IMG/VR virus record: IMGVR_UViG_3300028805_000067
Location: 32,001 to 96,000 of that record
Length of the DNA: 64,000 nucleotides
Source of the DNA: a virus
Lineage: Duplodnaviria; Caudoviricetes
Strand: one strand, 5' to 3'
This document shows positions 32,505 through 49,457 of this stretch, piece after piece (the first letter of the stretch is position 1; every line of letters starts with the position of its first letter). Under the pieces are notes generated by a model. It made no database searches and was not told where the DNA came from. It worked only from the letters and a program-made list of their open reading frames with translations. A program made the position numbers and the translations under genes.

Positions 32505-33280
32505 AGGGGTTTCCTTTCTTTCTTTATTTTCTATATATATTATACCAAAAATTTTTATATTTTTCAAAGGGAAGTACCTAAACCAAGAAGTCTGTGTGAA
32601 ATTCAAGGGAACAAGGGCAATAAATTAAGCGGGCCAAGAAAATGGGTTTGACAATTTTTAAAAATTATAGTATAATTATAACGCTTTAAGCAGCATGCCC
32701 GCGTGGATAAAATAGGTTTTTTTAGTATTCAAAAATCTCAATTACTCTTTACTCTTGTTTGCCCAAAAATCTTTCCGCTATGTTCCGGGACACAGAAGCT
32801 GGCAGCCGCTGCCGCTATGTGAGATAGATTTTTCTGGGACCGGCAGCGGCTTCCTGAGGACGGGACACCGGGCGCTGGCCGCCCGCTCAGTTCTGTTTTG
32901 TCAATTGTTTGCTATGAGCGCTATGAGGTAGTTCTTTGGGCCCAGTATTCTGGGACTCCAGCGTTATGGAGGGGCCTGTTAGATTTTGGCGGGCTTGGTT
33001 GATGGATGTCAGACAAGAGCTGGCTCGGGGATGAATTGGGTAGACAATTTCGGGATTTTGGGCAAAAAGTTTTTCAAAAAAAATTCAAAAAATATTTGAC
33101 ATAGGGGTAAATTTGTGGTATAATTCGGGGCGACGGCGCAGAATGCGCCTGTCGTCGCCCCGCTCAAAACAATAGCCCCCACTCTGCACGAGAGTAGGGG
33201 CTACCGCCAAACAAAAGAGAGGTCAATTATTAGAATGTCCACACAAGGGCGCAACCGCCTTGCGCCCAAGTGTCAATATT

Positions 33281-33733
33281 CTATTTTTTCTTCTTATACT
33301 TTCCGAGTTCCACAAAATCAAGTTTTATGGTTTTATCGTTTACTTTTGCGTGTATCAGCTTGTTATCTTTTTCAACTGTAAAGGCTATACCTGCTTTTTC
33401 AAGAGCCTCTTTTACAGTTGTGAATACTAATACTTTTTCATCTGCGATATGTACTGTTCGAGGCTTTGTAGGGGTAGCTCGCACTTTTTCAGACTTTGCA
33501 TTTTCTCTGCGATAGCCTTTTGCTTTCTTATCAAGCGCCTCGCGTTCTTCGCTTATTAGTTCCGCCTTATCTTCGGGCGACATTTTCTTTACTCTTTCTT
33601 CGTGGTCTATTGCCCAATCATCAAGAGCCATATAGACGGCTTCGTTATAACTGATTTTTGCGGTTTCTTGCAATCTTGCTATTTCCTTATCATCAAGAGT
33701 GATGGCTGTTCCGCTTGGTAATTCATACTTCAT
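33281..33733 (-). CDS. Hypothetical protein
   Basis: 150 aa, GAGG RBS. Confidence 0.8.
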   Translation of the reverse strand: MKYELPSGTAITLDDKEIARLQETAKISYNEAVYMALDDWAIDHEERVKKMSPEDKAELISEEREALDKKAKGYRRENAKSEKVRATPTKPRTVHIADEKVLVFTTVKEALEKAGIAFTVEKDNKLIHAKVNDKTIKLDFVELGKYKKKK

Positions 33734-33792
33734 TTTGTGTGCCTCTTTTCTTTTGTTTTTATATGGTGGGGTGGCTTATCGCCACCCACACC

Positions 33793-34173
33793 CTATTCTT
33801 CAGTTTTCAGCATATACTGCGAGGTGTTCTTAACTTTTGTCTTTATAAGAACATCTTTTGCAACCAACTTATTAAGCAACGGAGAGAGTTTCTGAGGAGT
33901 GAGTTCCTTTATCTCTGAAATTGTGGTTGCTTTGTAAAAATCAGCCTGAGAGATAAAACCTCTATCTGCTAATCTTTCAAACTCACTTGTGATATACACC
34001 ATAAGTGTTTCATTTTCTTTCTGTGTTGCAGTAGGCTTACGGTTGCTATATGCTTTCTTAATGTTGCTAATTTCATCTTTGATAAAATTAGTGAGTTCCT
34101 CATTATCCTTAATATACTCAAGGATTTCATTGTACTTTTCTACTTTTGTTTTCTGTTTTGCCATATCAAGCAC
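33793..34173 (-). CDS. Winged-helix DNA-binding protein (paralog 2)
   Basis: KPTATQKENE..LTPQKLSPLLNKLV..Y. Confidence 0.7.
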   Translation of the reverse strand: MLDMAKQKTKVEKYNEILEYIKDNEELTNFIKDEISNIKKAYSNRKPTATQKENETLMVYITSEFERLADRGFISQADFYKATTISEIKELTPQKLSPLLNKLVAKDVLIKTKVKNTSQYMLKTEE

Positions 34174-34213
34174 TTCCTTTCTTTATTGTGACTTTATTAT
34201 AACATACTTTTTA

Positions 34214-35050
34214 TTATTTGTCAAGAGTTTTTTTTGAAAAATCTTGAACAGTTCCAAGTTTGCGACAGGGCATAAACTCAAGTATAGGATTTATTTTGCC
34301 CTTGCGTAACGCCTTTGCCAAAATTATACTTTCAATTTCTGCATCATTTAGCGCCGTATGTGCCTCGATAAAATTCAATTCTTTTGCGAGGTATCGGTAT
34401 GCAACCTCTGCACTTGTCTTGAAATATTTTGCGCCCAAAAAATTATTTTTTACACAAAACTTCTTGTATCGTGAGTTATTGATAAGTTTGTCACATGCGA
34501 CTGCCCATATATCCACAATAGGCACTGTTATGTGGCGGAGGGTGAAGATAGGTTGTCTCCATGTATCGTCTATTATAGGAGGCTTATAACCACTAACAAA
34601 ATTATCAAATTGCCTTTTTTCCCACTCTTCAAACTTATCGCTATAGTATGCTTTTATAAAGCGTTCGGTATAAGGGATAGCTTTTTTAAAATCAAAAGTG
34701 GCATTATATGCACATACATTATACACCTTTTCCATATCGGCACATAGTTCTACAATGATATCATTCCATAAACGGATTTCTACCTTGCCTTTGCGTATGG
34801 ATTTGAGATACTTTGGGCGCTTATTTGCATAGTATGCACTATTATATAGTTCTTCGTCAAAAAAGATTTCTTGTACGATATAGTTTACTTTTTTGACAAT
34901 ATGCCCCTGTCTATCCATTATAACCCACCCTATGTCATACACTATAGGCTTTTTTAGCGCAATATCACCTTTATTGATATTATGCTCGGTATGAGATAAG
35001 TTTAGTGTGGTTGTTTCGGTATCAAGTACCAAATAATACTGCTTTTTCAT
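34214..35050 (-). CDS. DEDDh 3'-5' exonuclease
   Basis: LDTETT, AYNATFD, HTALNDA. Confidence 0.88.
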   Translation of the reverse strand: MKKQYYLVLDTETTTLNLSHTEHNINKGDIALKKPIVYDIGWVIMDRQGHIVKKVNYIVQEIFFDEELYNSAYYANKRPKYLKSIRKGKVEIRLWNDIIVELCADMEKVYNVCAYNATFDFKKAIPYTERFIKAYYSDKFEEWEKRQFDNFVSGYKPPIIDDTWRQPIFTLRHITVPIVDIWAVACDKLINNSRYKKFCVKNNFLGAKYFKTSAEVAYRYLAKELNFIEAHTALNDAEIESIILAKALRKGKINPILEFMPCRKLGTVQDFSKKTLDK

Positions 35051-35408
35051 GTTTTGTTGTCATCACCTCTTCTTTTGTTTTTGTACCCTTATTATAACAT
35101 ACTTTCTTTTGTTTGTCAAGGGTTTTTTTAATTTTTTTAAGATTTTTTGTTTCTGTGGGAGTGTTTCCGTTTCCTTTATCTTGATTAAATTATACCTCTA
35201 AACAAGCAAAAAGTCAACATTTTTTTAATTTTGAGGCGGATTTCGTCATTTTTCACAAAAAAATAGTGGTTTTTAGGATATTTTTTGTGCATTTTTTTCA
35301 AAAAAAGTGCTTGACAAATATTCTGAAGTGTGATATAATAGAAAATTCGGGGCATTTTCGCCAAATGCGGGCGAAAATGCCCCGCTCAAACAAGAAAAGT
35401 GGCGGATT

Positions 35409-35615
35409 TCAAACGATTTCCGCTACTTTTTTACTTTTTGGACTTAAACATAAAATATTTTTTAATGTTTTATTAGTTGCCATACTTTTCAATGCTGTTG
35501 TATAAGTTGAGTTAATCTCATATGCAGTTGGCCAAAAAGAATTTACATCTGCCATGCGAACTTCCATATCTTCAGGGTATTGTTTTAATTGTTTAATTAG
35601 TTCATTTACTTTCAT
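35409..35615 (-). CDS. Hypothetical protein
   Basis: MKVNELIKQLKQYPEDMEV, a common small phage protein start. Confidence 0.75.
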   Translation of the reverse strand: MKVNELIKQLKQYPEDMEVRMADVNSFWPTAYEINSTYTTALKSMATNKTLKNILCLSPKSKKVAEIV

Positions 35616-35878
35616 TCTTTCACCTCTTCAACTTCTATTGTGGGTTCATCCCAATTCCAATCTTCAGGATATACGGAATCCCCATATGATTTTCCTATAG
35701 CCAATGCCTCTTCTTTACTGTATGCCCATACAACAGTACCTGTCCGAGCTTTTGTTGTTATCAATACATTATATTTTTTACGAGGGGTTGCTCGTTCATA
35801 TTCTGCACAATCTTCATAGTTATTAAAGATTGTTCCGTCATATGCTCTATATTTAATTATCTTGTCCATTATATCCAA
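35612..35878 (-). CDS. Hypothetical protein
   Basis: 88 aa. Confidence 0.75.
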   Translation of the reverse strand: MDIMDKIIKYRAYDGTIFNNYEDCAEYERATPRKKYNVLITTKARTGTVVWAYSKEEALAIGKSYGDSVYPEDWNWDEPTIEVEEVKE

Positions 35879-35914
35879 CCTTTCTTTTTTAAATATTCTT
35901 CCAACATACCACCA

Positions 35915-36178
35915 TTAAATCAAACCTTTTCTCTTGCCATATCTGCGCAAGCCTTTAATTATTCTATGTTTAACCATATCGCACCTGTATGAATTGCAGG
36001 CATCTGCCATTATTTCAGAAAAATCTATGTTATATTCAATACCATATTTTTCCCAACCTCTTATTCTTGTTTTTACACTATTTCTTGCCTGTTCGCTATA
36101 ACTTCTGGGGCGCCATTTTCTGCGATACATTATATGCTGATTTTTCTTTTTCTTTGTCATGTTTACCTCCTTATGCAA
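35915..36178 (-). CDS. Basic hypothetical protein
   Basis: Likely start MTKKK (AAGGAGG). Confidence 0.7.
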   Translation of the reverse strand: MHKEVNMTKKKKNQHIMYRRKWRPRSYSEQARNSVKTRIRGWEKYGIEYNIDFSEIMADACNSYRCDMVKHRIIKGLRRYGKRKGLI

Positions 36179-36184
36179 GGTGCA

Positions 36185-36667
36185 TTAAAGCACCTTGCTT
36201 TCTGTTACGAAATACTTTGCGTGAAACTTTTTAGCCATTTCTTTTATAGCGAGGCTCTCTTTCTGTGTCTTGCTATATACATTAAATACAGTATCAAGTC
36301 CACTTGTTGCTACAGAGTTAAAACTTATGCGTGCCATTTTAAGCATTTCCGCCAAATCTTCGGCTCGCTCATTACGGACAGTCATTTCAATTTTCCATAA
36401 CTTATCTCGCCTTGCTTTTTCTTCAAGCCACTTGACTATGTATACTCCAATAAGGTTACATAAGCCTATGATAGTAGCTTTTAACCATAGTGGCAGGTCG
36501 CACATCATGTATACTACTACCACGGTATATAAACCGTATGCAATAGCATTAGTTAGTGCGGATACAAGTTTTCCACCTTTTATGGTGGCTATACTCTTGA
36601 TAGTCTGTAAAAGCACATTGACTACATTGAGTATAATGTAAATAATTAGCAGTTTCATTTGTTGCAC
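36185..36667 (-). CDS. Membrane protein, DUF5698/DUF2179-like
   Basis: Three transmembrane helices plus small C-terminal alpha/beta domain. Confidence 0.6.
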   Translation of the reverse strand: MQQMKLLIIYIILNVVNVLLQTIKSIATIKGGKLVSALTNAIAYGLYTVVVVYMMCDLPLWLKATIIGLCNLIGVYIVKWLEEKARRDKLWKIEMTVRNERAEDLAEMLKMARISFNSVATSGLDTVFNVYSKTQKESLAIKEMAKKFHAKYFVTESKVL

Positions 36668-37114
36668 CTCTTTCTTTTGTTTTTGTAATTATATTATATC
36701 ATAAAAGAAAAGGTTTGTCAAGCACTATTTCAATTTTTCAGAAATATTTTTTCAACCTTGTTATAAGTCCTCGACTTCCTTACGCACCTGACAGGGTTTT
36801 GTTTTAGGTTTTATCAGCCTTTTCTATTGATATTATAACATAATTTTAAGTACTTGTCAAGTACTTTTTTTATTTATTTTTTATTGCGGAGTTGCTTGGT
36901 TCTCTCTTAACCTTACAAGCATATTGTACCACAAGACCGAGCTTTTTGCAAGTGGCAAACTGCACAAAATATCGGGAATTTTTTTGTGCAAAATTTTTTG
37001 AAAAAATGCTTGACAAATCTTCCGGGATGTGATATAATGGAAAATTCGCGGCGGTTGCACGAAGTGCGGGCGCAACCGCCGCGACCAAAATAAAAGAGGG
37101 CTTTCGCCCTCCTT

Positions 37115-37321
37115 TTAGTACAACCCCTCAAACATCTGCATAAGGTCATTAATTCCGTTTCGCATCTGTTCCTGCTTTTCTGCGAGATAGGTTTTGTACT
37201 GTTCAATAGCCTTTTCTCTTGCCTCTTCATAGGTTTCGGCATCAACCGCCACCATGTAAACAGGAACATCCTCGCCAAGTACATTTTCATTCATTTCTCT
37301 TGTGTCAATAACTCTTGCCAT
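37115..37321 (-). CDS. Hypothetical protein
   Basis: 68 aa, GAGG RBS. Confidence 0.75.
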   Translation of the reverse strand: MARVIDTREMNENVLGEDVPVYMVAVDAETYEEAREKAIEQYKTYLAEKQEQMRNGINDLMQMFEGLY

Positions 37322-37342
37322 AATTAAACACCTCTTTCTTTT

Positions 37343-38617
37343 TTATTGTATATTATTAAATAGTTCTTGCAAATCTTTTTTTGCAATTTTAGCTATTTCA
37401 TCATTACTTGGCACATAACGGTTATGTGAATAAAGCCATTGGCTGATTGTATTGTTATTAGTATAAATATCCAAACAAATATAAGGTCGTCCGTCCATAT
37501 ATAAAGCACATCCATAACGCTGTCCAGTTCCAAGATAATTCCTCCATTCATAATCACTAAAACAGTTATGGAAATCTCTTCCAATTTTTTGGCAATCTTG
37601 ATATGTATACGGTATTACCAACTCTATCTTATGTTCGTCAATAATTTTACTATATTCAGGAAGCCTCTCTTGACGCTTTGTAAAAAGTTCAAATTTGTGT
37701 CTTTCTCTATAATCTTTATATACTTTTGCTAATTTATCTGCACTTATAAGAAAATCACTATAACTTTTATTCTTAACATAATCAGTAGTAGGTATTTCCA
37801 TGTCGGCACAAGACTTTTCAATATTTCCCAATATGTTGATTATAGTTGTTAAACATATATCTTTACTGGTTCTACAACAACTATCTTTAATTTTAAATGT
37901 GTTTCGTGGTTCATATTCTAACCAATCTTTAATATAATTAGGGATATTATTAATAATATTATTAATAGTATTTTGTATTTCTTGTACTTTTTTATCCTGT
38001 TCCACAAGCATATATTCAATTTCATTTTTATATTTAGTAAGCATATCAAATTGTTTTGGACTCAAAAGTTCAGAGATTTCACTACCTGATGATACTAAGC
38101 GTTTCAATAATGTTGGTGGGAATTTATCTTTTAATGATAATGTAATAGCCTCTTGTAGAAATTGACCTAAATCATTATATTTTTTCTTAGTAATCGCCTG
38201 TGAAATATTTTTGGTAGAAACATCTTTTAAGTTTTCTAACAGAATTTTCTCCGTATATGAAAGTTCGGAATTAGCACCAAAATTGGCAATTTTATTTTTA
38301 TATGCTAATTCCATAGCCAATATGATTTTCTTTTGAAGCTCTTCATCCATTTCATTATTATATATAAGTTTATTAACATCTGCTAATAATTTAGCAATAT
38401 TTAACATTGCCATATTTACATGAGTGCGTTTTATAGTGCCACATTTCCTATTAAAAGTGATATCATTATAACGATGATTGTAGAATGAAGTTACACTTAA
38501 ATCATTTACATCAATTTTATCTACTCGCCACGGATATACAGTATATATATACTCATGTCCATTTGGTGCAGTAATTGATACACCATTTTCAATTTCTTTT
38601 AGTATAATGTCTGCCAT
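37343..38617 (-). CDS. Hypothetical protein with PcfJ-like C-terminus
   Basis: LVIP..IGRDFHNC..PYICLDI..ISQW..HN. Confidence 0.55.
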   Translation of the reverse strand: MADIILKEIENGVSITAPNGHEYIYTVYPWRVDKIDVNDLSVTSFYNHRYNDITFNRKCGTIKRTHVNMAMLNIAKLLADVNKLIYNNEMDEELQKKIILAMELAYKNKIANFGANSELSYTEKILLENLKDVSTKNISQAITKKKYNDLGQFLQEAITLSLKDKFPPTLLKRLVSSGSEISELLSPKQFDMLTKYKNEIEYMLVEQDKKVQEIQNTINNIINNIPNYIKDWLEYEPRNTFKIKDSCCRTSKDICLTTIINILGNIEKSCADMEIPTTDYVKNKSYSDFLISADKLAKVYKDYRERHKFELFTKRQERLPEYSKIIDEHKIELVIPYTYQDCQKIGRDFHNCFSDYEWRNYLGTGQRYGCALYMDGRPYICLDIYTNNNTISQWLYSHNRYVPSNDEIAKIAKKDLQELFNNIQ

Positions 38618-38982
38618 TGTTTTTACCTCTTTTCTTTTGTTTTTGTACCTTTATTATAGCACATTGTTGCTTGTTTGTCAAGTACTTTTTTTATTTTTTT
38701 TGGAAGTTTTTGTTTAGGTTCTTCCTTAACCTTACAAGTAGATTATACCAAAAAAGAGTTAAAATGTCAAGCGGAAATAGGTAGAAAAATTGCACAAAAT
38801 ATCGGGATAAAATTTGTGCAAGATGCCAGCAAAAAGTGCTTGACATTTTTCTGAGGATGTGATATAATAGAATTTTCGGCTCGGTGCGCGGAACGCGCAA
38901 GGCACCGAGCCGACAAAACAACAACCCCTCTGCCGAGCGACAGAGGGGACAACGGAGGATTATACAATGGTTTGACAGTTGA

Positions 38983-39037
38983 TAGCAGTGTAGAGGAATC
39001 GAACCTCTTATTGCTTACCCAATACCATTTCACTGCT
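38983..39037 (-). ncRNA. D-arm-less mini-tRNA-like element
   Basis: AGCAGTG/CACTGCT stem, AGAGG-TTCGATT-CCTCT T-arm, one internal hairpin. Confidence 0.65.
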
Positions 39038-39134
39038 TTCGCTATTTTTTTCCTTTTCTTTTTGATGAAAAATCAGTTTCTGCGCCGAACTGGCCTAAAG
39101 TCATCTTTTTTCAAGTGGTAAGCGTTGAAAAAGA

Positions 39135-39187
39135 AAGCAAGTTAGGGATTTGCACCCTATTACTCGAGATACCGCTATGGACTTGCT
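39135..39187 (-). ncRNA. D-arm-less mini-tRNA-like element
   Basis: AGCAAGT/ACTTGCT stem stacked on TAGGG-TGCAAAT-CCCTA. Confidence 0.6.
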
Positions 39188-39334
39188 ACATAAGCATTGA
39201 GTGTTTATTTTCATGTCAAAAACTTAGGTTGCTTATCACCTAAAAAAGCCATTCTACTGTTGTTACCCCGAGAACCCAAGGACTAAGGAGTTTTTATTGC
39301 CGACTGCGTGAACTCTCATAGTGTTAAACACGCT

Positions 39335-39387
39335 CGTGATTGTGGTGGATTTGAACCACCTTGCCCTTATGGCTTCCATTCAACCAT
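39335..39387 (-). ncRNA. D-arm-less mini-tRNA-like element
   Basis: TGGTTG/CAATCA stem, GGTGG-TTCAAAT-CCACC T-arm, GCC-ATAAG-GGC hairpin. Confidence 0.6.
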
Positions 39388-39481
39388 ATTCAAGGGGTGG
39401 CGTGGCGTTGCCACCCCTGTATCTTTATAACCCAACTTGGTACGCACTGTTAGTAGGCGTGTCAGGGAAGGAGTGCAAGGG

Positions 39482-39883
39482 TTAAGCCCTTGCGAACACC
39501 TTAGCACCCTTATAAGCTACCATTTCCTCGTAAGTGAGTGGTGTCTTTTCCTTGTTGTCCTTATAGGCTACCGCCTTGCCAGACTTAACAAGTTCCTTAA
39601 GACGAGGGGATACTTTCTGCGAAGTCCACTCTTCACCGATTGAACGAGCGATTGTGGTTGCAGTTGCAGGCTCTGCGGTAAGTGCGTTATATACCGCCTC
39701 CATAGCCTTAGCATCCGCCTCAATCTCTGCCTTGCTCTTGCCTCCGCTTGACTTGCGGTTAGCAATAGAGTTCTTAAGCTGAACGAGCTTATCATTGAGG
39801 TCTTTGTCATCTTTTACATTTGCGCCATTGAGAACCGCATCAAGTGCGGATACATAAGAATACTTATCTGCCATAATTAGCAC
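39482..39883 (-). CDS. Winged-helix DNA-binding protein (paralog 3)
   Basis: ATATTIA..WTSQKVSPRLKELVKSG. Confidence 0.7.
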   Translation of the reverse strand: MLIMADKYSYVSALDAVLNGANVKDDKDLNDKLVQLKNSIANRKSSGGKSKAEIEADAKAMEAVYNALTAEPATATTIARSIGEEWTSQKVSPRLKELVKSGKAVAYKDNKEKTPLTYEEMVAYKGAKVFARA

Positions 39884-41236: not shown

Positions 41237-41286
41237 TTTTACCTCCTATGGCGGAGGCGCCTTATCAGCGCCCGCCGCCCCCTTTT

Positions 41287-41481: not shown

Positions 41482-41495
41482 TACTATATCATCTC

Positions 41496-42282: not shown

Positions 42283-42296
42283 TTTTATGTCCTCCT

Positions 42297-42467: not shown

Positions 42468-42702
42468 CTTTTGTTCCCTCCTCCCAGAGTACATTATAAA
42501 GTCTACATAAGTCTGCCCATTCCCACTCGTCATCCGCAAACCATTCATAGTCCTCTTCTATTGCCTCATCAGGTATACCTAACTGAATCCAGTCGCTCCA
42601 TATAAGCTCATCCCCGAGGTCTATGATACTCTCATTCATTTCCTTTGCAAGAGCAATACGCTCATCTCTTGTTGTTTCATAAAAATCTCTTGTGTTTACC
42701 AT
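42460..42702 (-). CDS. Highly acidic hypothetical protein
   Basis: D/E/W-rich; promoter and RBS. Confidence 0.75.
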   Translation of the reverse strand: MVNTRDFYETTRDERIALAKEMNESIIDLGDELIWSDWIQLGIPDEAIEEDYEWFADDEWEWADLCRLYNVLWEEGTKDD

Positions 42703-42857
42703 TGTTGGTACCTCCTTGTTTGTTTGTACCTAAAGTATATCATATTAGGACGGATTTGTCAAGTAGTTTTTTGCATTTTTGAAAAAATATTTTTAGAGGG
42801 TGTTCTCTGTTAGACTTTGCGGAGGCTGTGCGCAAAAAGCCCACGCACAGCCTCCGC

Positions 42858-43352
42858 TCATTTCGTGGAGGCTGTTAGTCTTTTGTAAAATGCTTGCACA
42901 TTTATATTTAATTCTTGTTTAAATGTTTCAATCTTGTCTGGGTGCATCTTGTAAAACCATATCGCCCAAGCGGTCGCCGCCTTTTCAAGTGGAAGATTAA
43001 AATATAATTTATTAGCTACATGATGCAATGGTTTTGGCAGCTTGTCAATTCCGATTTTGCAAATCATATTCCACATGGTGTTAGTATCAGAAAAGTATTT
43101 GAAAGTTTTTAAATGTCCGATTTCATGCAGAATTGATAATATCATCAAATCAATTGTAGCTGGCTGAAAATCATATTTCCAATTCTTTTTTATAAATGAA
43201 CAAAAGTCTTTGTCACATTTGTCACACTGTAAAGAGTAAGCGATTTGTTTGCGGTTTTTAGATACCCAAAAGTTTTGGTCAAGTGTTGCGGTTAAGGTTA
43301 AACCGCAACACTCTTTTATCATTTCGCTCATTTGTTTATTTAATATTTTCAT
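42858..43352 (-). CDS. HExxH metallopeptidase-like protein
   Basis: ILHEIGH followed by EKAATAWA. Confidence 0.65.
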   Translation of the reverse strand: MKILNKQMSEMIKECCGLTLTATLDQNFWVSKNRKQIAYSLQCDKCDKDFCSFIKKNWKYDFQPATIDLMILSILHEIGHLKTFKYFSDTNTMWNMICKIGIDKLPKPLHHVANKLYFNLPLEKAATAWAIWFYKMHPDKIETFKQELNINVQAFYKRLTASTK

Positions 43353-43561
43353 AATTTTTTTAATACCTCATCAAGCCTTTCATCAAGGTAGGCATTGTTT
43401 ACCATATAAAGTGCGGTTTTCAGTCCTTTTACTACACCCTTATAGTAGATTGCATCCTCAGTTTCATCATTGTCGTCAGCATCCTTGCGATTCCATTGAT
43501 AAATGTCTATCATCTGTCTCAGGGATGTCTCAATTTTTCGTGCCAGTTCTTCATTACTCAT
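43349..43561 (-). CDS. Hypothetical protein
   Basis: GGAGG RBS. Confidence 0.75.
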   Translation of the reverse strand: MSNEELARKIETSLRQMIDIYQWNRKDADDNDETEDAIYYKGVVKGLKTALYMVNNAYLDERLDEVLKKL

Positions 43562-43751
43562 TTTTTAATTCCTCCGTTTTTTTATTTTGTAATTAAAGTA
43601 TAACACATTTTAGGATAAAAGTCAAGTATTTTTTTGAAAAAAATTAAAAATATTTTATTTAGAGGGCATAATATTAAAGTTAATGCGGGTCGCTGCCGCG
43701 AAGAACTTGTGGCAGCGACCCGTCCGAGCCACCGCCACAGTTTTGGAGGAT

Positions 43752-44069
43752 TTATTCAAAATTATTTTCAAAAAGCCAATCTTCAATTACCTCGTCAGCA
43801 AGTGTTTCATAATCTACATTTTTCATGGCAAGCATTGCCCAGTTGTAAGCATCAGAACCAAGTCGATAATTAACACTGAATCCGATACTATCTTCACCAA
43901 GTGACTTTAGCATTTCGATTACATTTGTTTTGAGGGTTTTATCTTTATTCATCTGTAAGATTTCATCATCCTCGTAGAAAAAGGATAGTGAAAAATCTCC
44001 ATATAAAAAATCTTCTTTAAACTTGTATGTTTCATAGTTTTTATATTTGCTATCAGGTCTATAATACAT
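43752..44069 (-). CDS. Acidic hypothetical protein
   Basis: Start MYYRPD; C-terminus resembles the 44991 ORF. Confidence 0.7.
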   Translation of the reverse strand: MYYRPDSKYKNYETYKFKEDFLYGDFSLSFFYEDDEILQMNKDKTLKTNVIEMLKSLGEDSIGFSVNYRLGSDAYNWAMLAMKNVDYETLADEVIEDWLFENNFE

Positions 44070-44079
44070 ATTTGCCTCC

Positions 44080-44331
44080 TTAATGCGCCTCATAGGTTCT
44101 GTTTGATACTAAACCTGAGCCACAGTTCGTGACGAACCAACAATACTCATCAGTGCTCATAATCTCACCAGTTTCTGTATCAATTGCATCCACTATAGCG
44201 CTATACTCATAATAGTCTATATATGGCAATACAGAGTTCAGATAATGGATTACTGAATCCATATCATCAAAATCCTCACGCTCAAGAATGTAAAATCCTG
44301 TTGTGTCGCTTATTTCTACTGTGTATCTCAT
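44080..44331 (-). CDS. Acidic hypothetical protein
   Basis: Start MRYTVE (GGAGG). Confidence 0.7.
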   Translation of the reverse strand: MRYTVEISDTTGFYILEREDFDDMDSVIHYLNSVLPYIDYYEYSAIVDAIDTETGEIMSTDEYCWFVTNCGSGLVSNRTYEAH

Positions 44332-44460
44332 ATTGAGTACCTCCGTTTCATTTGATAGCATAAGTATACTATATTTTAGGTAAAAAGTCAACATACAAAA
44401 TGCACAAAGATTAGATTGAATGTTTGTGCACTTTTAACAAAAGAACAATGTGATTTGCCT

Positions 44461-44703
44461 TTATGAAATATCCAGATATATAGGCTCTAAATCGTGACAA
44501 TCAGCAAATTCACTCGTTTCACCGTTGCCTTTATAGACTTTGAAATCTCTAATAATATCACCATACTCTTCTATTTTACGCAGGCGACCACACACCCAAG
44601 ATTTAAGATATGAATCTCTATACCGTTTATACGGCTTGCTGGTGCATACAATAATGGTAAGATCCTCGGTGAAAACTACAAGGGTAAAAATCTGTTCGTT
44701 CAT
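44461..44703 (-). CDS. Hypothetical protein
   Basis: Start MNEQIF (GGAGG). Confidence 0.7.
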   Translation of the reverse strand: MNEQIFTLVVFTEDLTIIVCTSKPYKRYRDSYLKSWVCGRLRKIEEYGDIIRDFKVYKGNGETSEFADCHDLEPIYLDIS

Positions 44704-44938
44704 AATAAAATCCTCCATAGGGTAAGTAGTGGTTTAAGGGTCTCTTCCTTAACTCTGGATACATTGTACCATATTTTAGGAAGAAAGTCAACATACAAAA
44801 TGCACAAAATTGAATGGAATTTTTTATGCAATATATACAAATAGACAATGCGGGCCGTCGACGCGAAAAACTTGTGACGACGGCCCGCCAAGACCGCCGT
44901 CCAAGTTTGGAGGATATTCTGTAATTTTAGTAAATTGA

Positions 44939-44985
44939 TTGGGAGCAAGGGAGTCGAACCCTACTACTGAGCCGTCAGCTCCCAA
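44939..44985 (-). ncRNA. Mini-tRNA-like element
   Basis: TTGGGAGC/GCTCCCAA stem with AGGG-TTCGACT-CCCT T-arm. Confidence 0.6.
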
Positions 44986-44990
44986 GTGGA

Positions 44991-45311
44991 CTAAAATGTC
45001 CACTCATCGAAAAGTAACTGGGCGATTTCTTCAAAATTTACATTATTTATTGCAAGCAATGCCCAACCATATACCTCTTTATAGAGTTTATAGTCTACAT
45101 TAAATTTAAATGTTTCTACTACTGCATCTCTTAATTTCTCTGCTATATCTGCAACCATAAACCCTTCTGCCATATTTTTTGAAACATCTTCGCAATACAG
45201 TTCAAATTCTTCATTTGGATCGTCATATACATTTTCAAGAGTTGCATCTGCGAAAAAATCTTTGTAGCATTCCCAAGTAGGATAATTTGAAAAACCATTA
45301 ACTTTTGCCAT
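44991..45311 (-). CDS. Acidic hypothetical protein
   Basis: NGFSNYPTW..VNFEEIA. Confidence 0.75.
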   Translation of the reverse strand: MAKVNGFSNYPTWECYKDFFADATLENVYDDPNEEFELYCEDVSKNMAEGFMVADIAEKLRDAVVETFKFNVDYKLYKEVYGWALLAINNVNFEEIAQLLFDEWTF

Positions 45312-45349
45312 TGTATTTACCTCTTTTCTTATTTTCTATAATGATTATA

Positions 45350-45556
45350 TCATATTTTTTTGTTCTTGTCAATACCTTTTTTCATAATTTTTACACGCCT
45401 GCGGATGTTTCCGTTGTACCTGTGTGCTTCTACAATTGTATTAAGAACCTTTAAATCATTGCATCTATTTGCAAAGTCTACAAACTGTGCGACTACATTA
45501 TTGTAGCCATTGTAAATGTTGTACATTTCCTGAATGAGTTCCTGTTTATTCTTCAT
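45350..45556 (-). CDS. Hypothetical protein
   Basis: GGAG RBS. Confidence 0.7.
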   Translation of the reverse strand: MKNKQELIQEMYNIYNGYNNVVAQFVDFANRCNDLKVLNTIVEAHRYNGNIRRRVKIMKKGIDKNKKI

Positions 45557-45740
45557 TTTTTTGTCCTCCGTTCTTTATCTTGACTAAAATATACCATATT
45601 TTAGGTAAAAATACAATAGATAAAATGCACAAAAAATCAGCAAAAAATTTATACAACCTGTCTATTGACAAAACAGCGGATGGCGCGCGACAGATGCTGC
45701 AGCCCGCCATCCGCTCAATAAAAAAGAGTAGGCTTTTCGC

Positions 45741-45902
45741 CTACTCATATTCAACAGTCCAATTGGTTGCGTAAATGTAATCATCAAATTCTTTTCTGTA
45801 CTTGTACAGGTCGATTTTGTGTCCAAGTCTTGACCATTCAACTGCTTCCCTGTGGTTTGCAGTGAGTTTGTTTGTTACGGTGTCGTGATAGATAGTTTTC
45901 AT
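45741..45902 (-). CDS. Hypothetical 53-aa protein (not in ORF track)
   Basis: MKTIIHDT..; promoter and AAGGAG RBS. Confidence 0.65.
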   Translation of the reverse strand: MKTIYHDTVTNKLTANHREAVEWSRLGHKIDLYKYRKEFDDYIYATNWTVEYE

Positions 45903-45939
45903 TGTTTAAATCTCCTTTGTTTTTTGTAATTTTATTATA

Positions 45940-46116
45940 TCATATGTCTTTTAATTTGTCAACCATTTTATTTAATTCTTTCTGATATTTATAAGTTCTA
46001 TTGCCTAAGCACCAATCGCATCCTCCGTGGTTTCTGCAAGTGCAATCAAAAGCCTTGCTACCCTTATATTGTTTGCGGTGTTCTTTTCCATACTCAATTG
46101 CTTTGTTCATGCTCAT
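45940..46116 (-). CDS. Small zinc-binding protein
   Basis: DCTCRNHGGCDWC. Confidence 0.75.
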   Translation of the reverse strand: MSMNKAIEYGKEHRKQYKGSKAFDCTCRNHGGCDWCLGNRTYKYQKELNKMVDKLKDI

Positions 46117-46194
46117 TTTTTTATCCTCCTTGTTCTTTTGTATCTTTATTATACCATAGGGCTTGGCTTTTGTCAAGCCCTATTTTTAACTTTT

Positions 46195-46503
46195 TTAGCA
46201 ATATGCCAAGTTCATTTTTCTCCATCCAAGAATTGAGATTTGGTTATGTTCTCTGCCTATTGCAAGTGCATCACATTTGCGTGTTACACGCTTACTCAGG
46301 TCGATATACCATATCCCGTCTGCGAACCAAATACCGCAGTTTCCACTATATGCTTTGATAGCTTTCATAGCCTCATGCATATCTTTTGTTTCAATACCCT
46401 CGGTAGCCACTTGCCAACCTGTCTTATAGGTTATAGGCTTGCCATTTTTAAGAGTTAAGCCGCCGTTGTTCTCAATTTTCTTAAGTGTTCTAATGTTTAT
46501 CAT
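46195..46503 (-). CDS. Hypothetical protein
   Basis: Start MINIRT; GIW..YIDLS..HNQISI. Confidence 0.75.
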   Translation of the reverse strand: MINIRTLKKIENNGGLTLKNGKPITYKTGWQVATEGIETKDMHEAMKAIKAYSGNCGIWFADGIWYIDLSKRVTRKCDALAIGREHNQISILGWRKMNLAYC

Positions 46504-46698
46504 ATCAGGTTCCTCCGTTCCTTTGATGATTAAAGTATACCACATTTCGGGTATTTTGTCAATGGGTAAAAATAAAAAAGTTGAAAAAATTTTGGCTGGA
46601 TCAGCTCTCTTACTGGAACTTGCGGACTGCGCGCAGAGTTTGCGCCAGCGCGCAGTCCGCCAAAGAAAAAGACACTACTTTGCGTAGTGTCCTGTATT

Positions 46699-46881
46699 CT
46701 ACTCGCCTGCGTAGTAGGCTGAACGGTAGCACTGAGGGTTCATTTCATTTTCAGTGTGAACAACCTCAAGTGCCCTGTCCTGAGTACTGTAAGCTCCATA
46801 GAACCAGTACTCGCCGTCACAGTAGGAAATTACCCACCAATCATACTCTCTTGCATAGTCAGGAACATTGTTAATCTTCAT
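46699..46881 (-). CDS. Hypothetical protein
   Basis: GAGGAGG RBS. Confidence 0.75.
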   Translation of the reverse strand: MKINNVPDYAREYDWWVISYCDGEYWFYGAYSTQDRALEVVHTENEMNPQCYRSAYYAGE

Positions 46882-46949
46882 AATTAAGTCCTCCTCTTGT
46901 TTTTGTTGACTTTATTATAACATAATTGTTAAGGTTTGTCAAGCCTTTT

Positions 46950-47150
46950 TTAATAATCTTTTCCGATTTCTACAACCATATCCCAAGCGATTTTTTCAAG
47001 TGAGAGATTGCATTTTTTTGCGTATCGTGTGACATCTGAATTAGCCTGCAGGCTTTTCATTACTTTGTTTAATGCGCTGTCCCAATTCTTTGCGGAAAAT
47101 TCCTCGGGCAAGTCTACAAGATTGCGGTTGCGTGTAATTCTGTAATTCAT
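46950..47150 (-). CDS. Hypothetical protein
   Basis: AGGAGG RBS. Confidence 0.75.
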   Translation of the reverse strand: MNYRITRNRNLVDLPEEFSAKNWDSALNKVMKSLQANSDVTRYAKKCNLSLEKIAWDMVVEIGKDY

Positions 47151-47223
47151 ATTTAAGCCTCCTGAACTTTTTGTAATTCTATTATATTACATTTTTGTAA
47201 ATTTGTCAAGTGTTTTTTACATC

Positions 47224-47433
47224 TCATTCCGTTCCGTAAATATCCCACCAATTCTCCTCAGCTACAGGCTCAAGTCTAACATTTTTGCCTCTGCCCAAGC
47301 AATAGATATCTTCTTTTGTAGGTGCGTTGATAATTCTATCAACATCTGCCTGTGTACCGTTTGCGTATACCATACAAGTTACGGTTACTCCATTGTTGAA
47401 TGTGCAATCTGCAACGATCATGTACTTCTTCAT
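47224..47433 (-). CDS. Hypothetical protein
   Basis: AGGAGG RBS. Confidence 0.75.
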   Translation of the reverse strand: MKKYMIVADCTFNNGVTVTCMVYANGTQADVDRIINAPTKEDIYCLGRGKNVRLEPVAEENWWDIYGTE

Positions 47434-47630
47434 AATTTAATCCTCCTAATTATTTGTTCTTTCCTTTTTTCTGATTAAAGTATATCATATTTTAGGATAT
47501 TTGTCAATAGTTTTTTTCAAAAAAACTAAAAAAAGTTTTTTTAAACCTCCTCCCAGTAGAATAACGCGGCTCAGTTGCCGCAAAAGCAAATGCAACTGAG
47601 CCGCCCGATTGTGACGGCTCAGTGAGTGGA

Positions 47631-47894
47631 CTAATATTCAATATCCTCGCAGAATACAACAGGCTCTCCGCTGAAGTACTTGTAACCAACAGAGTATTTT
47701 CTTTTTAGGATGCAAGCACCTGCCTCGTACCATGTTGCCTCTACATCATCAACAATATTCTTGGTGTCTGCACCGAGCAGAAGTGCCTCAGCAGTGCGGT
47801 TTGCCTCTTCCCAAGTGGTCCAGAAAGTGGTCTTAACAGCGGTGTTAGTGGTTGTGTAGGTAAGCATAGTGTTCATCATAATTGTTTCCTCCAT
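47631..47894 (-). CDS. Hypothetical protein
   Basis: Likely start MMNTML (GGAGG). Confidence 0.75.
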   Translation of the reverse strand: MEETIMMNTMLTYTTTNTAVKTTFWTTWEEANRTAEALLLGADTKNIVDDVEATWYEAGACILKRKYSVGYKYFSGEPVVFCEDIEY

Positions 47895-47995
47895 TGTTCT
47901 TTCCTTTTTTCTGATTAAAGTATATCATAAATTGGATATTTTTGCAATAGTCAAAATGTACAAAATTTTTAATATTTTTTGTGTACTCTGCACAA

Positions 47996-48202
47996 TCACT
48001 GCTTTACTACTGTGATAAGCCTGTTGTAAGTATCGGTAATAACAACCTTGTCATTTACAAATTTTTCAGCCATTTTGTTTGCGTAAGCATATGCCTGATC
48101 ATAGTCATTAATCTGAGCTTCGCTAACTACTTTCCAGATGATACCGAAGAAGCCTTCGCCTTTGTTTCTCATAACCTTTACTTTGTAACCTGTTCCTGTC
48201 AT
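47996..48202 (-). CDS. Hypothetical protein
   Basis: GGAGG RBS. Confidence 0.75.
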   Translation of the reverse strand: MTGTGYKVKVMRNKGEGFFGIIWKVVSEAQINDYDQAYAYANKMAEKFVNDKVVITDTYNRLITVVKQ

Positions 48203-48579
48203 ATTTTAATCCTCCGTTTCTTTCTTTCTTTATCTTGACTAAAGTATATCATATTTTGGGCGTTTTGTCAATAGTTTTGCGCAAAAAAACTTAAAAATTT
48301 TTATTTGGAAACATATATAATTAGAAAAATGCGGTTCGGCTACGCAACGCACTGCCGCAGCCGAACCGCCCAATAAAAAAAGAGCCAAGTTAGTTTAACT
48401 TAGCTCTCTCATGTGATATTCATTTGTTTTACACCTCGTTTCTGAAAACCCCTGTTGCACCTTTTCAAAGCACCCGTAACTGTTTCAGCCAAGCGCCCCT
48501 ACTTAGTGGCTGTTCTTTTCTCTTTTCTTGTCTTTATTATAGCACTCAATATCTATTTTGTCAAGTGTTTTTTCACTTT

Positions 48580-49002
48580 TTAAAAAATAATTTTTGCGCC
48601 TTTTGTTTCAAGCCAGTAGCCTGCATGACCTGCTTTTATCCATGCATTGATATTTGCTTTTGTATCATCAATTAGCATCCCATCTTCTTTGATGTAATCT
48701 ACTTTTTTACCACTACCAACTAAACAAATAAATTTATCACTTGTAATTTCAGGAATGTATTTTGCAAGCCAATCAAGTTTGCCAAGTTTAGCATCTTCAG
48801 AAGCACAAGCAGTCAGGATGTAAACATTGTTGCCCTGAGCAATCAGCTTACGCACAAGATTAACATTTTCTACAAAAGGCTCAAGGTTTGCAATCCATCT
48901 TCTCTGCATAACAAGATAACGCTTTGTAGCATCATAAGCCTTGTGGAAGTTAGCAAGAACACCGTCCATATCAAAATAGTAAGTGGCAATAGTAGTTCTC
49001 AT
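48580..49002 (-). CDS. HAD-family 5'(3')-deoxyribonucleotidase-like protein
   Basis: FDMDGVLANF, ILTA, KLDWL and LIDD motifs. Confidence 0.85.
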   Translation of the reverse strand: MRTTIATYYFDMDGVLANFHKAYDATKRYLVMQRRWIANLEPFVENVNLVRKLIAQGNNVYILTACASEDAKLGKLDWLAKYIPEITSDKFICLVGSGKKVDYIKEDGMLIDDTKANINAWIKAGHAGYWLETKGAKIIF

Positions 49003-49457
49003 AGTGACATCCTCCATCTCTTTATCTTGGCTTTATTATACCTCTGACTTGTGAATTTGTCAAGTCTGTTTTGTATATTTTTTAAAAAAATTTTTATACA
49101 AAAACTGCTGCATAAAAATTTCTTGGAATGGATCAAGTAAAATAAACTCGCTGCCTTTACGGCATATTCATTTGTAAAGGCAGCGACGAAAAATAGAGAA
49201 GCTCTCAAGGTTTTAAAAAATAGTGCTAGAAAGTGTATAGGCGGGGGGTGTATATTGGGAAAAGATCCAGCTTTTTTTAAAAAAAGAAAACGCCACCCCC
49301 TCTCCCCGTCTAAATCTTTTTTCAATTTATTAAACACAATTTAACTCTCCGCCTAAATTTTTACTAAAACGACAGCACCTTTATCACTTTTTGCCCAATA
49401 AAAAATTGACATCACCTAAAAATTTTGATATAATTATATCAGAAAGGAGGTTATCAA

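Follow-up and report, generated by a model that had tools for sequence, protein, structure and literature searches.

We analysed a window of 64,000 nt from the 135-kb (135,255 bp) genome of a Firmicute-type siphovirus of the sheep gut/rumen, estimated to be ~90% complete. An equal-sized, GC-rich hairpin of unique sequence ends each of 14 early gene blocks, and these hairpins are real and conserved. Thirteen of the palindromes are 37 nt long and one is 36 nt, and all are located in the early region. A pattern scan for CG-N9-C-N13-G-N9-CG gave 13 matches in the window, whereas 100 dinucleotide shuffles averaged 0.69 matches, peaked at 5, and never reached 13. A scan of the whole genome (135,255 bp) added the 36-nt copy at 38877-38912, confirming the predicted array of 14, and found no copies outside the interval of 32.8-49.2 kb. 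All 14 palindromes fold at -20 to -32 kcal/mol (z-scores -3.8 to -8.6; 0/200 shuffles fold as well), and their arms are ~75-80% GC against 33% for the genome. The successive spacings are 2222, 1699, 1830, 1554, 1484, 905, 866, 1165, 826, 946, 944, 765, and 817 nt. The copies, which carry no strand assignment, are as follows, with class B denoting those without an antisense promoter:

33126-33162: boundary hairpin 1, 37 nt, class A, last in the array
35348-35384: boundary hairpin 2, 37 nt, class A, stem of 15 bp and loop of 7 nt
37047-37083: boundary hairpin 3, 37 nt, class A
38877-38912: boundary hairpin 4, 36 nt, class A
40431-40467: boundary hairpin 5, 37 nt, class A
41915-41951: boundary hairpin 6, class B
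42820-42856: boundary hairpin 7, class B, without a separate terminator
43686-43722: boundary hairpin 8, class B, without a separate terminator
44851-44887: boundary hairpin 9, class B, without a separate terminator
45677-45713: boundary hairpin 10, class B
46623-46659: boundary hairpin 11, class B, weak Rfam RF02589 match spanning terminator and hairpin
47567-47603: boundary hairpin 12, class B, without a separate terminator
48332-48368: boundary hairpin 13, class B
49149-49185: boundary hairpin 14, class B, adjoining the divergent structural module

The two arms of each copy change together. When 20 copies from four genomes are aligned without gaps, 95% of the cells are paired, both sides change in 11 of 12 pairs, and 74 cells are compensatory; none of 500 shuffles matched this covariation, which upholds the arm co-variation first described. 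Pairing is Watson-Crick at stem positions 1-9 in all 38 copies checked, and the outer arms contain zero G:U or A:C pairs, compared with ~9% G:U in the neighboring T1 terminator folds. The original prediction placed the mismatches at arm positions 10-11 without strand bias; they are indeed confined to the inner part of the stem beside the loop, but at positions 9-12, and the 2 G:T and 6 A:C (C:A) mismatches are too few to reveal a bias. Similarly, the proposed 12-13-12 geometry holds as an average, since the fixed quantity is the total length, with perfect stems of 8-15 bp and loops of 7-20 nt. The supposedly invariant CG and C12 retrieve the 13 matches in the window, but in copies from relatives the first base is sometimes T and position 12 varies.

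In both classes, A predominates over T in the loops when read on the antisense strand (A 192, T 78; A:T = 2.5:1), and C21 is invariant across the 20 aligned 37-mers. A loop motif, RAA..GCGG, recurs in the present phage and its relative G004, and GAGNAGCG recurs in two other relatives, G006 and G008, while the arms vary freely; paralogues within G008 have a 17-nt loop in common and different arms. The class B loops are variable, and a proposed 3-bp mini-helix within the loop is paired in only 52%. No Rfam family matches the palindromes at its thresholds; RF02589, a two-hairpin S. pyogenes sRNA family, gives a weak architectural match (33.6 bits vs. a gathering score of 67).

The pattern search was extended to relatives, and the element occurs in four related uncultured phages, giving 45 copies with unrelated arm sequences in five genomes. 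Apart from two copies of 47 nt, the total length is 36-40 nt across the set; any single genome keeps it at 36-38 nt. The geometry survives in relatives with just 47% identity between early proteins, in agreement with the view of a structure-read, sequence-free element. It is absent from relatives at 62% terminase identity and from Enterococcus phage H1; both the relative G001 and phage H1 retain the early-region layout without it. The present phage and G004 have 14 copies each, between which cassettes have been gained, lost, and reordered, so that the palindromes do mark cassette boundaries. They are not free-standing signals, however: each is fixed beside a terminator and a promoter and travels with the upstream cassette even beside a different downstream neighbor (cassettes C4, C6, and C8). 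We saw no indication that they act in DNA entry or packaging.

The differing cassette order in the present phage and G004, the conserved structure with free sequence, and the position at cassette borders could suggest attC-like or other site-specific recombination sites in an integron-like array, as the original prediction proposed; attC sites likewise are at cassette borders, vary in sequence, and are recognized by structure, as the present element would be if recognized at all. We regard this explanation as hardly credible. Profile searches with PF00589, PF00239, and PF01797 found no match anywhere in the genome (~90% complete), in which no integrase or other tyrosine/serine recombinase and no Y1/HUH transposase is detectable. 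There are no conserved R/L core boxes (R''/L''-L'/R') or extrahelical bases, the length is fixed instead of the 57-141 nt of attC sites, and the cassettes are not promoter-less, since every one brings its own perfect sigma-A promoter(s) as well as terminators. Moreover, the long conserved repeats are the adjacent promoter/operator regions, and homologous exchange at these repeats, a mechanism proposed for the PeSL cassettes (PMC4122927), suffices to account for the shuffling while the hairpin stays with its upstream cassette.

As first described, every copy follows a gene end and precedes the next minus-strand promoter, and a separate terminator (T1) precedes nine of the 14. The hairpin lies 2-14 nt past the T1 U-tract or overlaps a T1-like hairpin made with its own first arm; most T1 terminators have no U-tract when read in reverse. 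The terminators and related structures are as follows:

33174-33202, minus strand: T1 of hairpin 1, an intrinsic terminator (hairpin and U-tract) closing the operon that ends there
35399-35426, minus strand: T1 of hairpin 2, with a plus-strand U-tract too; may act bidirectionally
37092-37115, minus strand: T1 of hairpin 3, with a terminator call on the plus strand as well
38925-38948, minus strand: T1 of hairpin 4
40478-40497, minus strand: T1 of hairpin 5
41962-41981, minus strand: T1 of hairpin 6
45726-45746, minus strand: T1 of hairpin 10
46669-46693, minus strand: T1 of hairpin 11
48378-48410, minus strand: T1 of hairpin 13
42867-42875, no strand: third copy of the hairpin 7 arm
47615-47623, no strand: third copy of the hairpin 12 arm
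44876-44901, minus strand: T1-like hairpin using the first arm of hairpin 9, whose loop is its tail, ACAAGUUUUU

At hairpin 7, the third arm copy pairs with the first arm in the sense RNA and the U-rich loop becomes the U-tract, forming an overlapping T1-like terminator; hairpin 12 has the same arrangement. In four cassettes, the first arm and U-rich loop are the only recognizable terminator. In copies without a backward promoter, the next forward promoter is located 59-61 nt downstream of the hairpin (57 nt at hairpin 7):

48243-48271, minus strand: sense sigma-A promoter, -35 box starting 60 nt after hairpin 13
47479-47507, minus strand: sense promoter, 59 nt after hairpin 12
46534-46562, minus strand: sense promoter, 60 nt after hairpin 11
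44763-44791, minus strand: sense promoter, 59 nt after hairpin 9
43597-43625, minus strand: sense promoter, 60 nt after hairpin 8
42734-42762, minus strand: sense promoter, 57 nt after hairpin 7
41827-41855, minus strand: sense promoter, 59 nt after hairpin 6

Our reading of the element changed because perfect plus-strand promoters, overlooked in the original prediction, abut five of the copies:

33096-33124, plus strand: antisense sigma-A promoter of hairpin 1, TTGACA-17-TATAAT, 12/12 matches, TG present, -10 box ending 1 nt before the hairpin
35311-35339, plus strand: antisense sigma-A promoter of hairpin 2, -10 box ending 8 nt before
37010-37038, plus strand: antisense sigma-A promoter of hairpin 3, -10 box ending 8 nt before
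38840-38868, plus strand: antisense sigma-A promoter of hairpin 4, -10 box ending 8 nt before
40394-40422, plus strand: antisense sigma-A promoter of hairpin 5, -10 box ending 8 nt before

Across the five genomes, 24 of the 45 copies have such a promoter facing into the hairpin, near-perfect TTGACA-17/18-TGnTATAAT in sequence, with 7-8 nt between the -10 box and the hairpin in 22 of the 24 and 1 nt in two. Its presence is all-or-none: nothing comparable lies beside the remaining 21 copies, which keep the hairpin. These juxtapositions, like the anatomy, conservation, and covariation of the boundary elements, are direct observations, and the hairpin is a component of the stop/start control modules that apparently has not been described before.

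Transcription start sites, RNA ends, and all functional effects of the hairpins are predictions from sequence. The reading we prefer, tentatively and at slightly less than even confidence, is that of a boundary hairpin which acts as RNA, is clamped at the base, and would cap the 5' ends of counter-transcripts and back up the termination of forward read-through. The composite boundary runs from the last gene through T1, the hairpin, an optional backward sigma-A promoter, and a ~60-nt operator/UP region to one or more forward promoters of the following cassette. The hairpin could fold in transcripts of either strand, and its tight basal GC clamp would be what matters. Where a backward promoter is present, the predicted start is 0-3 nt before the hairpin, so that the counter-transcript would open with a flush 5'-terminal stem-loop, which should protect it from the RppH/RNase J1 5'-end decay of Firmicutes. 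In B. subtilis, RppH needs at least two unpaired 5' nucleotides and prefers three or more (PMC3997798); given this requirement, the 0-3 unpaired nucleotides expected from the promoter spacing argue for the capping role. The counter-transcript or its polymerase would then cross the one-way terminator and enter the upstream cassette from its end, acting as antisense RNA or by collision with forward polymerases. Forward polymerases leaking past T1 would also transcribe the hairpin; in promoter-less copies, the hairpin and its moderately U-rich tail might serve as a backstop terminator, whereas in promoter-bearing copies the leaking polymerase would run into the counter-promoter. Either way, the early cassettes would be insulated, each as its own transcription unit.

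Capping cannot be the whole story, because nine of the 14 copies lack a backward promoter and keep perfect stems. The backstop role is weakly indicated: the sense-direction tails contain 46% T against a 27% background and are U-rich in class B (e.g., CAUUUUUCUAAU and CAUUUUCCUUUUU), but they begin AAA(A)UU in the promoter-bearing copies, and the 7-20 nt loops exceed what a terminator would usually have. The same U-rich tails, together with the position of every copy directly after gene ends, the four cassettes dependent on the first arm and loop, and the weak RF02589 match, would agree with tandem intrinsic terminators of the ordinary kind, in which the palindrome is no more than the second hairpin. 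This is decidedly improbable, as the AAA(A)UU start characterizes the promoter-bearing majority, a canonical T1 already precedes most copies, G001 and phage H1 manage the same layout without the element, and terminators are not characterized by a fixed length, large loops, strict Watson-Crick pairing, or an abutting backward promoter.

The Watson-Crick base with mismatches beside the loop fits an end-anchored hairpin rather than loop recognition or cruciform nucleation. The absence of G:U and A:C from the outer arms agrees with folding being required in both transcripts, and fits equally well a DNA-level structure in which both strands fold, namely single-stranded hairpins or supercoiled cruciforms at highly transcribed borders, read by a host or phage protein or serving as a topological/replication signal. 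The GC contrast between arms and genome points the same way, and a fixed total length with a variable stem/loop split looks like a duplex spacing constraint. In addition, DNA assemblies of related strains break at the palindrome edge at 40467, and the phage encodes an RNase H, common to G006 and absent from G001, that is compatible with R-loop or primer chemistry. Nevertheless, central mismatches and long central spacers disfavor cruciform extrusion, making mismatches beside 7-20 nt spacers the poorest design for it; the loops show a strong polarity with respect to gene orientation; the copies are confined to the early region; no candidate binding protein co-occurring with the element was found; and a DNA-only signal needs no promoter starting transcription nucleotide-exactly at the hairpin base. 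A DNA-level role is unlikely. Metatranscriptome contigs stop at or inside palindromes, but these stops are uninformative on RNA ends because one DNA contig stops likewise.

For the RNA boundary hairpin, we infer that the A-rich antisense-strand loops avoid mispairing with the adjacent U-tract or A-tract. This reading leaves the 36-38 nt length fixed in each genome unaccounted for, and a further point speaks against it: in the last copy of both the present phage and G004, a single nucleotide separates the -10 box from the hairpin, which puts the predicted start within the first arm. The lineage-wide loop motifs amid free arms, the invariant C21, and the common loop of the G008 paralogues could instead indicate a cis-acting RNA with a trans factor, either a put/nut-like modifier conferring polymerase resistance to terminators or collisions, or an RNase III-type processing site separating cassette RNAs. 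As with put and nut sites, the hairpin is directly downstream of a strong promoter in 24/45 copies, and intercistronic hairpins in the early RNAs of phage SP82 are reportedly cut by Bacillus RNase III; PMC4838370 lists the papers concerned among its references. We consider such a role distinctly unlikely. The loop-adjacent pairs are the least conserved, the opposite of loop-specific recognition; the mini-helix is poorly paired and class B loops vary; classical RNase III substrates have longer helices than the 12-15 bp found here; and strong plus-strand terminators at 43282-43312 and 46156-46183 would halt long antisense runs before most class B copies.

Among known elements, the REP/BIME palindromes of enterobacteria are GC-rich, imperfect, ~35-40 bp long, and located after operon ends, and are credited with RNA 3'-end protection, transcription attenuation, and gyrase binding. 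REPs are sequence families spread by RAYT transposases, whereas the present copies have no common arm sequence and are tied to promoters, and the PF01797 search found no RAYT-like gene in the genome. The lambda oop RNA, one of the 3'-end antisense RNAs, is a short RNA from a promoter facing back into the end of the upstream gene, and HK022 put is a structured cis-acting RNA directly downstream of an early promoter; the present element has no sequence or structural homology to either, matches no Rfam family at thresholds, and occurs in many copies per genome.

The 5'-terminal stem-loop stabilizers of E. coli ompA and papA and the B. subtilis aprE leader (reviewed in PMC3997798) combine a stable stem-loop with few unpaired 5' nucleotides at most, as would the transcripts from the predicted backward-promoter starts. 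The known stabilizers head mRNAs, whereas here the RNA is a predicted non-coding antisense RNA and the element, a perfect DNA palindrome, would fold in the opposite transcript too. The PeSL cassettes of T4-type phages (PMC2839356, PMC4122927) also place composite stem-loop and early-promoter modules between small early/accessory genes; these modules recur many times in a plastic region, and relatives differ by cassette gain, loss, and reordering. However, the PeSL stem-loop is the terminator itself, short and with a family consensus, while the present hairpin is separate, longer, GC-rich, unique in sequence, fixed in length, located after the terminator, and often followed by a backward promoter, and the host and promoters are of the Firmicute sigma-A type. 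The synthetic [quoted passage not shown] of Brophy and Voigt (2016) likewise consists of a gene, a one-way terminator, and a strong promoter facing back into the gene; the stronger the antisense promoter, the proportionally stronger the repression of the upstream gene, which arises mainly from polymerase collisions (PMC4731013). The phage layout matches this part because T1 mostly lacks a reverse U-tract. The phage version is natural and also has a conserved hairpin right at the predicted antisense start; this hairpin is kept in 21 of the 45 copies even without the promoter.

We searched the source genome, one virus contig of 135,255 bp with 33% GC and an estimated completeness of ~90%, of which the window covers bases 32001–96000, for the 14 palindromes (12-bp arms around a 13-nt spacer) that the original prediction had placed at gene-cassette boundaries between 33126 and 49185. 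The array is real: the predicted pattern matches 13 times in the window against 0.69 expected, the genome-wide scan added one copy of 36 nt at 38877, and all 14 copies fold stably (free energies between −20 and −32 kcal/mol, z-scores between −3.8 and −8.6). Across the 135,255 bp, zero copies were found beyond the early region. The spacing does shrink toward the terminase as described. The 12-13-12 geometry stood in part: the total length is held constant within each genome (37 nt here; 36–37 nt in the related uncultured phage G004, with two outliers of 47 nt; 38 nt in G006; and 37–39 nt in G008), but across copies the perfect stem spans 8–15 bp and the loop 7–20 nt. The best-preserved copies have a 15-bp stem and a 7–8-nt loop, and 12-13-12 is the decayed average of this design. 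The two 47-nt variants of G004, at positions 174–220 and 1376–1422 of its locus L005, contain 10 extra loop bases including GTTGACA.

The only conserved sequence at the base of the stem is CG/CG (or TG/CA). Stem positions 1–9 are Watson–Crick paired in 38/38 checked copies, with a CGG/CCG or TGG/CCA clamp, and all mismatches are adjacent to the loop, in agreement with the predicted inner positions; they include just two G:T and six A:C (C:A) pairs, too few for strand assignment. Over the 12-bp helix, 95% of the cells are paired and 11 of the 12 pairs show two-sided change, with 74 compensatory cells, a number matched by 0 of 500 shuffles. The outer arms contain no G:U and no A:C pairs, compared with ~9% G:U in the folds of the neighboring T1, the intrinsic terminator preceding each hairpin, which suggests that folding is required in both strands. 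Between copies, the arms have no sequence in common (no 9-mers are systematically shared) and have no systematic second sites in the genome, which leaves no trans targets. The loops are A-rich on the antisense (plus) strand, with or without an adjacent promoter (A 192, T 78), for which avoidance of pairing with the adjacent U-tract or A-tract is one simple explanation. The loop motifs RAA..GCGG and GAGNAGCG are conserved, and C21 is invariant across 20 aligned 37-mers. The loop was also checked for a 3-bp mini-helix closing a GAA triloop, which was not supported: only 52% of its cells pair.

The large terminase of the source phage shares 44–46% identity with Geobacillus virus E3 and large Enterococcus siphoviruses and 61–63% with uncultured gut phages, and the phage is a Firmicute-type siphovirus, not T4-like. 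The public sequencing runs in which the stretch occurs come from sheep and cattle gut metagenomes. The contig ends (genome C1:231–268 and 135181–135218) repeat each other over at least ~75 bp at an offset of 134,950 bp, so the record either represents a circular assembly or carries short terminal repeats. At window 354–2470 there are six tRNA genes (Pro, Glu, Arg, Tyr, Leu, and Asn), with RNA ligase genes near this island at 3080–3997 and 20987–22093, and Enterococcus phage H1 matches this layout across the terminase, early block, exonuclease, and tRNA island. The hairpins are located in a minus-strand block of small genes (window 33–49 kb), most of which could not be annotated, divergent from the plus-strand terminase/structural module at 49.4 kb. 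Window 32500–49600 contains ~25 perfect (12/12) TTGACA-17-TATAAT sigma-A promoters within 17 kb, most with an extended −10 TG. Every cassette has its own sigma-A promoter or promoters, and several early cassettes carry two or three in tandem, ~100 nt apart.

The original prediction overlooked the order of the boundary and its backward promoters. At every boundary, read on the sense (minus) strand, the last gene is followed by T1, a small canonical terminator with a U-tract, then by the palindrome 2–14 nt later, and then by the promoter(s) of the next cassette; a separate T1 is missing in four cassettes. At copies 42820 and 47567 (named by their starts), a third arm copy upstream pairs with the first arm of the palindrome, and the U-tract is supplied by the U-rich loop; at 44851 the first arm is used for a comparable T1-like hairpin, and the arrangement is visible only in degenerate form at 43686. 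The five distal copies (33126–40431), which we call class A, each have a perfect plus-strand TTGACA-17-TGnTATAAT promoter facing backward, whose −10 box lies 8 nt from the palindrome in four copies and 1 nt at 33126. Class B comprises the nine proximal copies, which lack a backward promoter, and searches of them for weak antisense promoters or a shared alternative promoter motif found neither; in 7 of the 9 the forward −35 box begins 57–60 nt past the palindrome. T1 has no reverse-direction U-tract in most cases. The sense tails after the hairpin are 46% T in both classes versus 27% in the background, starting with CAUU in class B and AAA in class A, and a simple terminator scanner called 35348 as the sole terminator among the palindromes. 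Intrinsic terminators on the plus strand also occur in or between early genes at 43282–43312, 46156–46183, and 36175–36198, as if the length of antisense transcripts were deliberately limited. Between the forward and backward promoters, all five hairpin-bearing genomes contain a conserved operator-like inverted repeat, TTGCACAAA and TTTGTGCAA separated by ~15–20 nt with TTTCGGGA or TTTTAGGA, which is probably a site for a phage regulator of the distal cassettes:

Window 36940–37000: operator-like inverted repeat
Window 38760–38830: operator-like inverted repeat
Window 40300–40390: operator-like inverted repeat
G004, G006, G007, and G008: equivalents of this repeat

Relatives were reached through a homologue of a 424-aa early protein (47% identity, giving G004) and through a DNA pattern from a class A junction, which gave G006 with its near-identical G005, G007, and G008. 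A covariance model trained on 20 gapless 37-mers matches 14 times here, 14 times in G004, and six times in G006, and with three copies in G007 and eight in G008 from a direct scan the total is 45. The model found none in the full 145-kb genome of G001, a 21-kb locus (L003) of G002, or the early region of Enterococcus phage H1. A human-gut fragment, L037, has shortened hairpin versions of 27–29 nt; closer relatives are known as proteins only (P0002–P0007, 62–78% identity), and a metagenome-contig scan gave no contig beyond one already in the analysis. The T1-just-before-hairpin context is the same in all hairpin-bearing relatives. The layout of an antisense promoter with a unidirectional terminator is present at 24 of the 45 copies (5/14 here), with near-perfect promoters whose −10 end is 7–8 nt off the hairpin in 22 and 1 nt in two, and absent at the other 21, which have no backward promoter at all, so the distribution is cleanly bimodal. 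Three promoter-less copies of G006 (68174, 70793, and 72528; 8174, 10793, and 12528 of its locus L030) have TTGACA 5 nt ahead of the hairpin. A −10-like TAGAGT/TAGAGG would follow this TTGACA at 18 nt, exactly within the hairpin loop; the arrangement may be a deletion remnant or a promoter showing its −10 in the loop.

The source phage and G004 both have five distal class A and nine proximal class B copies. The class A part is syntenic between them, and the class B part contains unique, lost, or reordered cassettes, which supports the description of the palindromes as cassette boundaries. For the rearranged cassettes C4, C6, and C8, orthology is recognizable, with compensatory differences, in the hairpin that follows the genes but not in the one that precedes them; hence, the hairpin belongs to the 3′ end of its cassette. 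This places the likely exchange points in the promoter/operator regions, which are long and conserved; the same was proposed for the PeSL cassettes of T4-type phages (PMC4122927). Joints in contigs of related strains, whose 48 end-points include 39 within 25 nt of a promoter and one near a palindrome, were set aside as recombination evidence, since with matching sides of only 21–37 nt most of them are likely cross-matches among repeated promoters. The palindromes had also been read as possible attC-like sites of an integron-like array, and a co-occurring tyrosine recombinase or HUH nuclease was proposed as a check. Such site-specific recombination sites are now very improbable, despite the cassette reordering: PF00589 (tyrosine recombinase), PF00239 (serine recombinase), and PF01797 (Y1 transposase) have no match across the 135-kb genome, which is ~90% complete by estimate, the hairpins lack R and L core boxes and have perfectly paired outer arms, and the cassettes carry promoters themselves.

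We tentatively favor, at somewhat less than an even chance, an RNA-level boundary hairpin that would act both ways, as a 5′ cap for counter-transcripts and as a backstop for forward read-through. A counter-transcript from the backward promoter would begin at the hairpin, with a start predicted 0–3 nt before the stem from the 7–8-nt spacing of the −10 box. RppH of B. subtilis requires at least two unpaired 5′ nucleotides (PMC3997798), and so the counter-transcript should resist 5′-end-dependent decay. As T1 is mostly one-way, class A reproduces the synthetic part of a unidirectional terminator plus an antisense promoter, in which repression of the upstream gene is proportional to antisense promoter strength (PMC4731013). 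Class B stems stay perfect in two diverged genomes without a promoter, and the hairpin thus has a function of its own; the moderately U-rich sense tails and the four cassettes with no terminator other than one built from the arm and loop of the palindrome point to forward termination or insulation, as judged from the sequences.

The conserved base fits a hairpin tightly closed at its foot, as in an RNA-end structure or a terminator stem, and fits poorly with loop-specific protein recognition or cruciform extrusion. Cruciform extrusion nucleates at the center. We regard a DNA-level structure as unlikely. An RNA that binds a factor or is processed is kept alive by the conserved loop motifs, but we consider it quite unlikely. 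A scan for a hairpin-binding or -processing factor among proteins in G006 but not in G001 (RNase H, guanylate kinase, an NrdD fragment, a LAGLIDADG/HTH protein, and unknowns) gave no convincing partner. The type 1 RNase H (genome C1:8695–9282, outside the window; PF00075, E = 6e-29) is common to the source phage and hairpin-bearing G006 and absent from hairpin-less G001. A plain tandem terminator is improbable. The hallmark of an intrinsic terminator is a GC-rich stem with a U-tract directly behind it; the tails here are moderately U-rich, and those of class A begin AAA. It is doubtful, but worth stating, that structure alone makes each palindrome a two-way insulator acting as RNA on both strands, in which backward polymerases would be given a protected, or even polymerase-modifying and put-like, 5′ hairpin and would win head-on collisions, silencing the upstream cassette, forward read-through would be stopped, and cassette shut-off would be timed; the conserved loop motifs would then be where RNA polymerase or a phage factor makes contact.

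In a sheep-gut run, metatranscriptome contigs stop at or inside palindromes (47568, 37064, and 43713), and a DNA contig likewise ends at a palindrome edge (40467); as DNA contigs also break there, these ends are uninformative on RNA and probably reflect assembly or sequencing effects of the hairpins. The ~530-nt gap at 38950–39480, without a convincing ORF, between the gene 39482–39883 and the terminator 38925–38948, has a tRNA-like T-arm and a weak Rfam tRNA-Sec match (26 bits; 38984–39037 on the minus strand), and its end is marked by a plus-strand terminator (39393–39418); it could be a non-coding RNA from the backward promoter 38840–38868. A second tRNA-fragment-like structure on the minus strand at 44925–44990, with an 8-bp acceptor-like stem TTGGGAGC/GCTCCCAA around a GGGTTCGACTCCC T-arm, drew no call from ARAGORN or Rfam. 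At gathering thresholds, Rfam found nothing but tRNAs in the window. A perfect plus-strand promoter (32648–32676) faces ~400 nt of ORF-free, GC-richer sequence; this stretch (32648–33095), located where the early region ends farthest out and with a comparable counterpart in G004, is a candidate for a structured non-coding RNA. It includes a 42-nt palindrome (32807–32848) that does not match the covariance model and was not counted as a copy. In addition, ATCCTCCAAA, an anti-Shine-Dalgarno mimic in its likeness to the 3′ end of 16S rRNA, occurs in three homologous cassettes, within their 3′ untranslated ends and just ahead of the hairpin:

Window 43723–43752: ATCCTCCAAA site
Window 44888–44920: ATCCTCCAAA site
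L005 of G004, ~4780–4816: ATCCTCCAAA site

Large virulent phages swap host take-over and anti-defence genes into and out of their early regions, and the transcriptional independence and timely shut-off of small early cassettes are poorly understood except in T4, T7, and SPO1. The boundaries of this lineage follow a strict, conserved grammar of a one-way terminator, a base-clamped hairpin, an optional perfect counter-promoter, an operator region, and forward promoter(s), and the hairpin outliving its promoter narrows what the hairpin itself must do. If hairpin and counter-promoter act as proposed, they would be compact natural parts for insulating and tuning genes in Firmicutes, and antisense interference would be a routine layer of phage early-gene control; the insulator, if true, would provide programmable, timed shut-off per cassette.

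Among known systems, PeSL elements are similarly phage hairpins directly upstream of early promoters, repeated among small genes of a plastic region, like the cassettes shuffled here relative to G004. However, PeSL stem-loops follow a family consensus and are the terminators themselves, in a T4-like lineage, whereas here the arms are unique, a separate T1 precedes, and the phage is a Firmicute-type siphovirus. Integron attC sites have conserved R/L core boxes, extrahelical bases, and mostly promoter-less cassettes, features not seen here, and REP elements share a repeat sequence and a Y1 (RAYT) transposase, unlike these unique arms in a genome where PF01797 is absent. The Rfam family RF02589 (Spy779816 sRNA) matches one copy only, at 33.6 bits against a gathering threshold of 67, below family membership. 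In 5′-terminal stabilizer stem-loops, the RNA 5′ end lies ~0–3 nt from a stable stem; here, this position is predicted from the 7–8 nt between the −10 box and the hairpin. Our literature searches found no description of such hairpin/counter-promoter boundary units, and the unit is best filed as a composite terminator/promoter cassette with antisense promoters, a known type, to which a conserved hairpin component is added.
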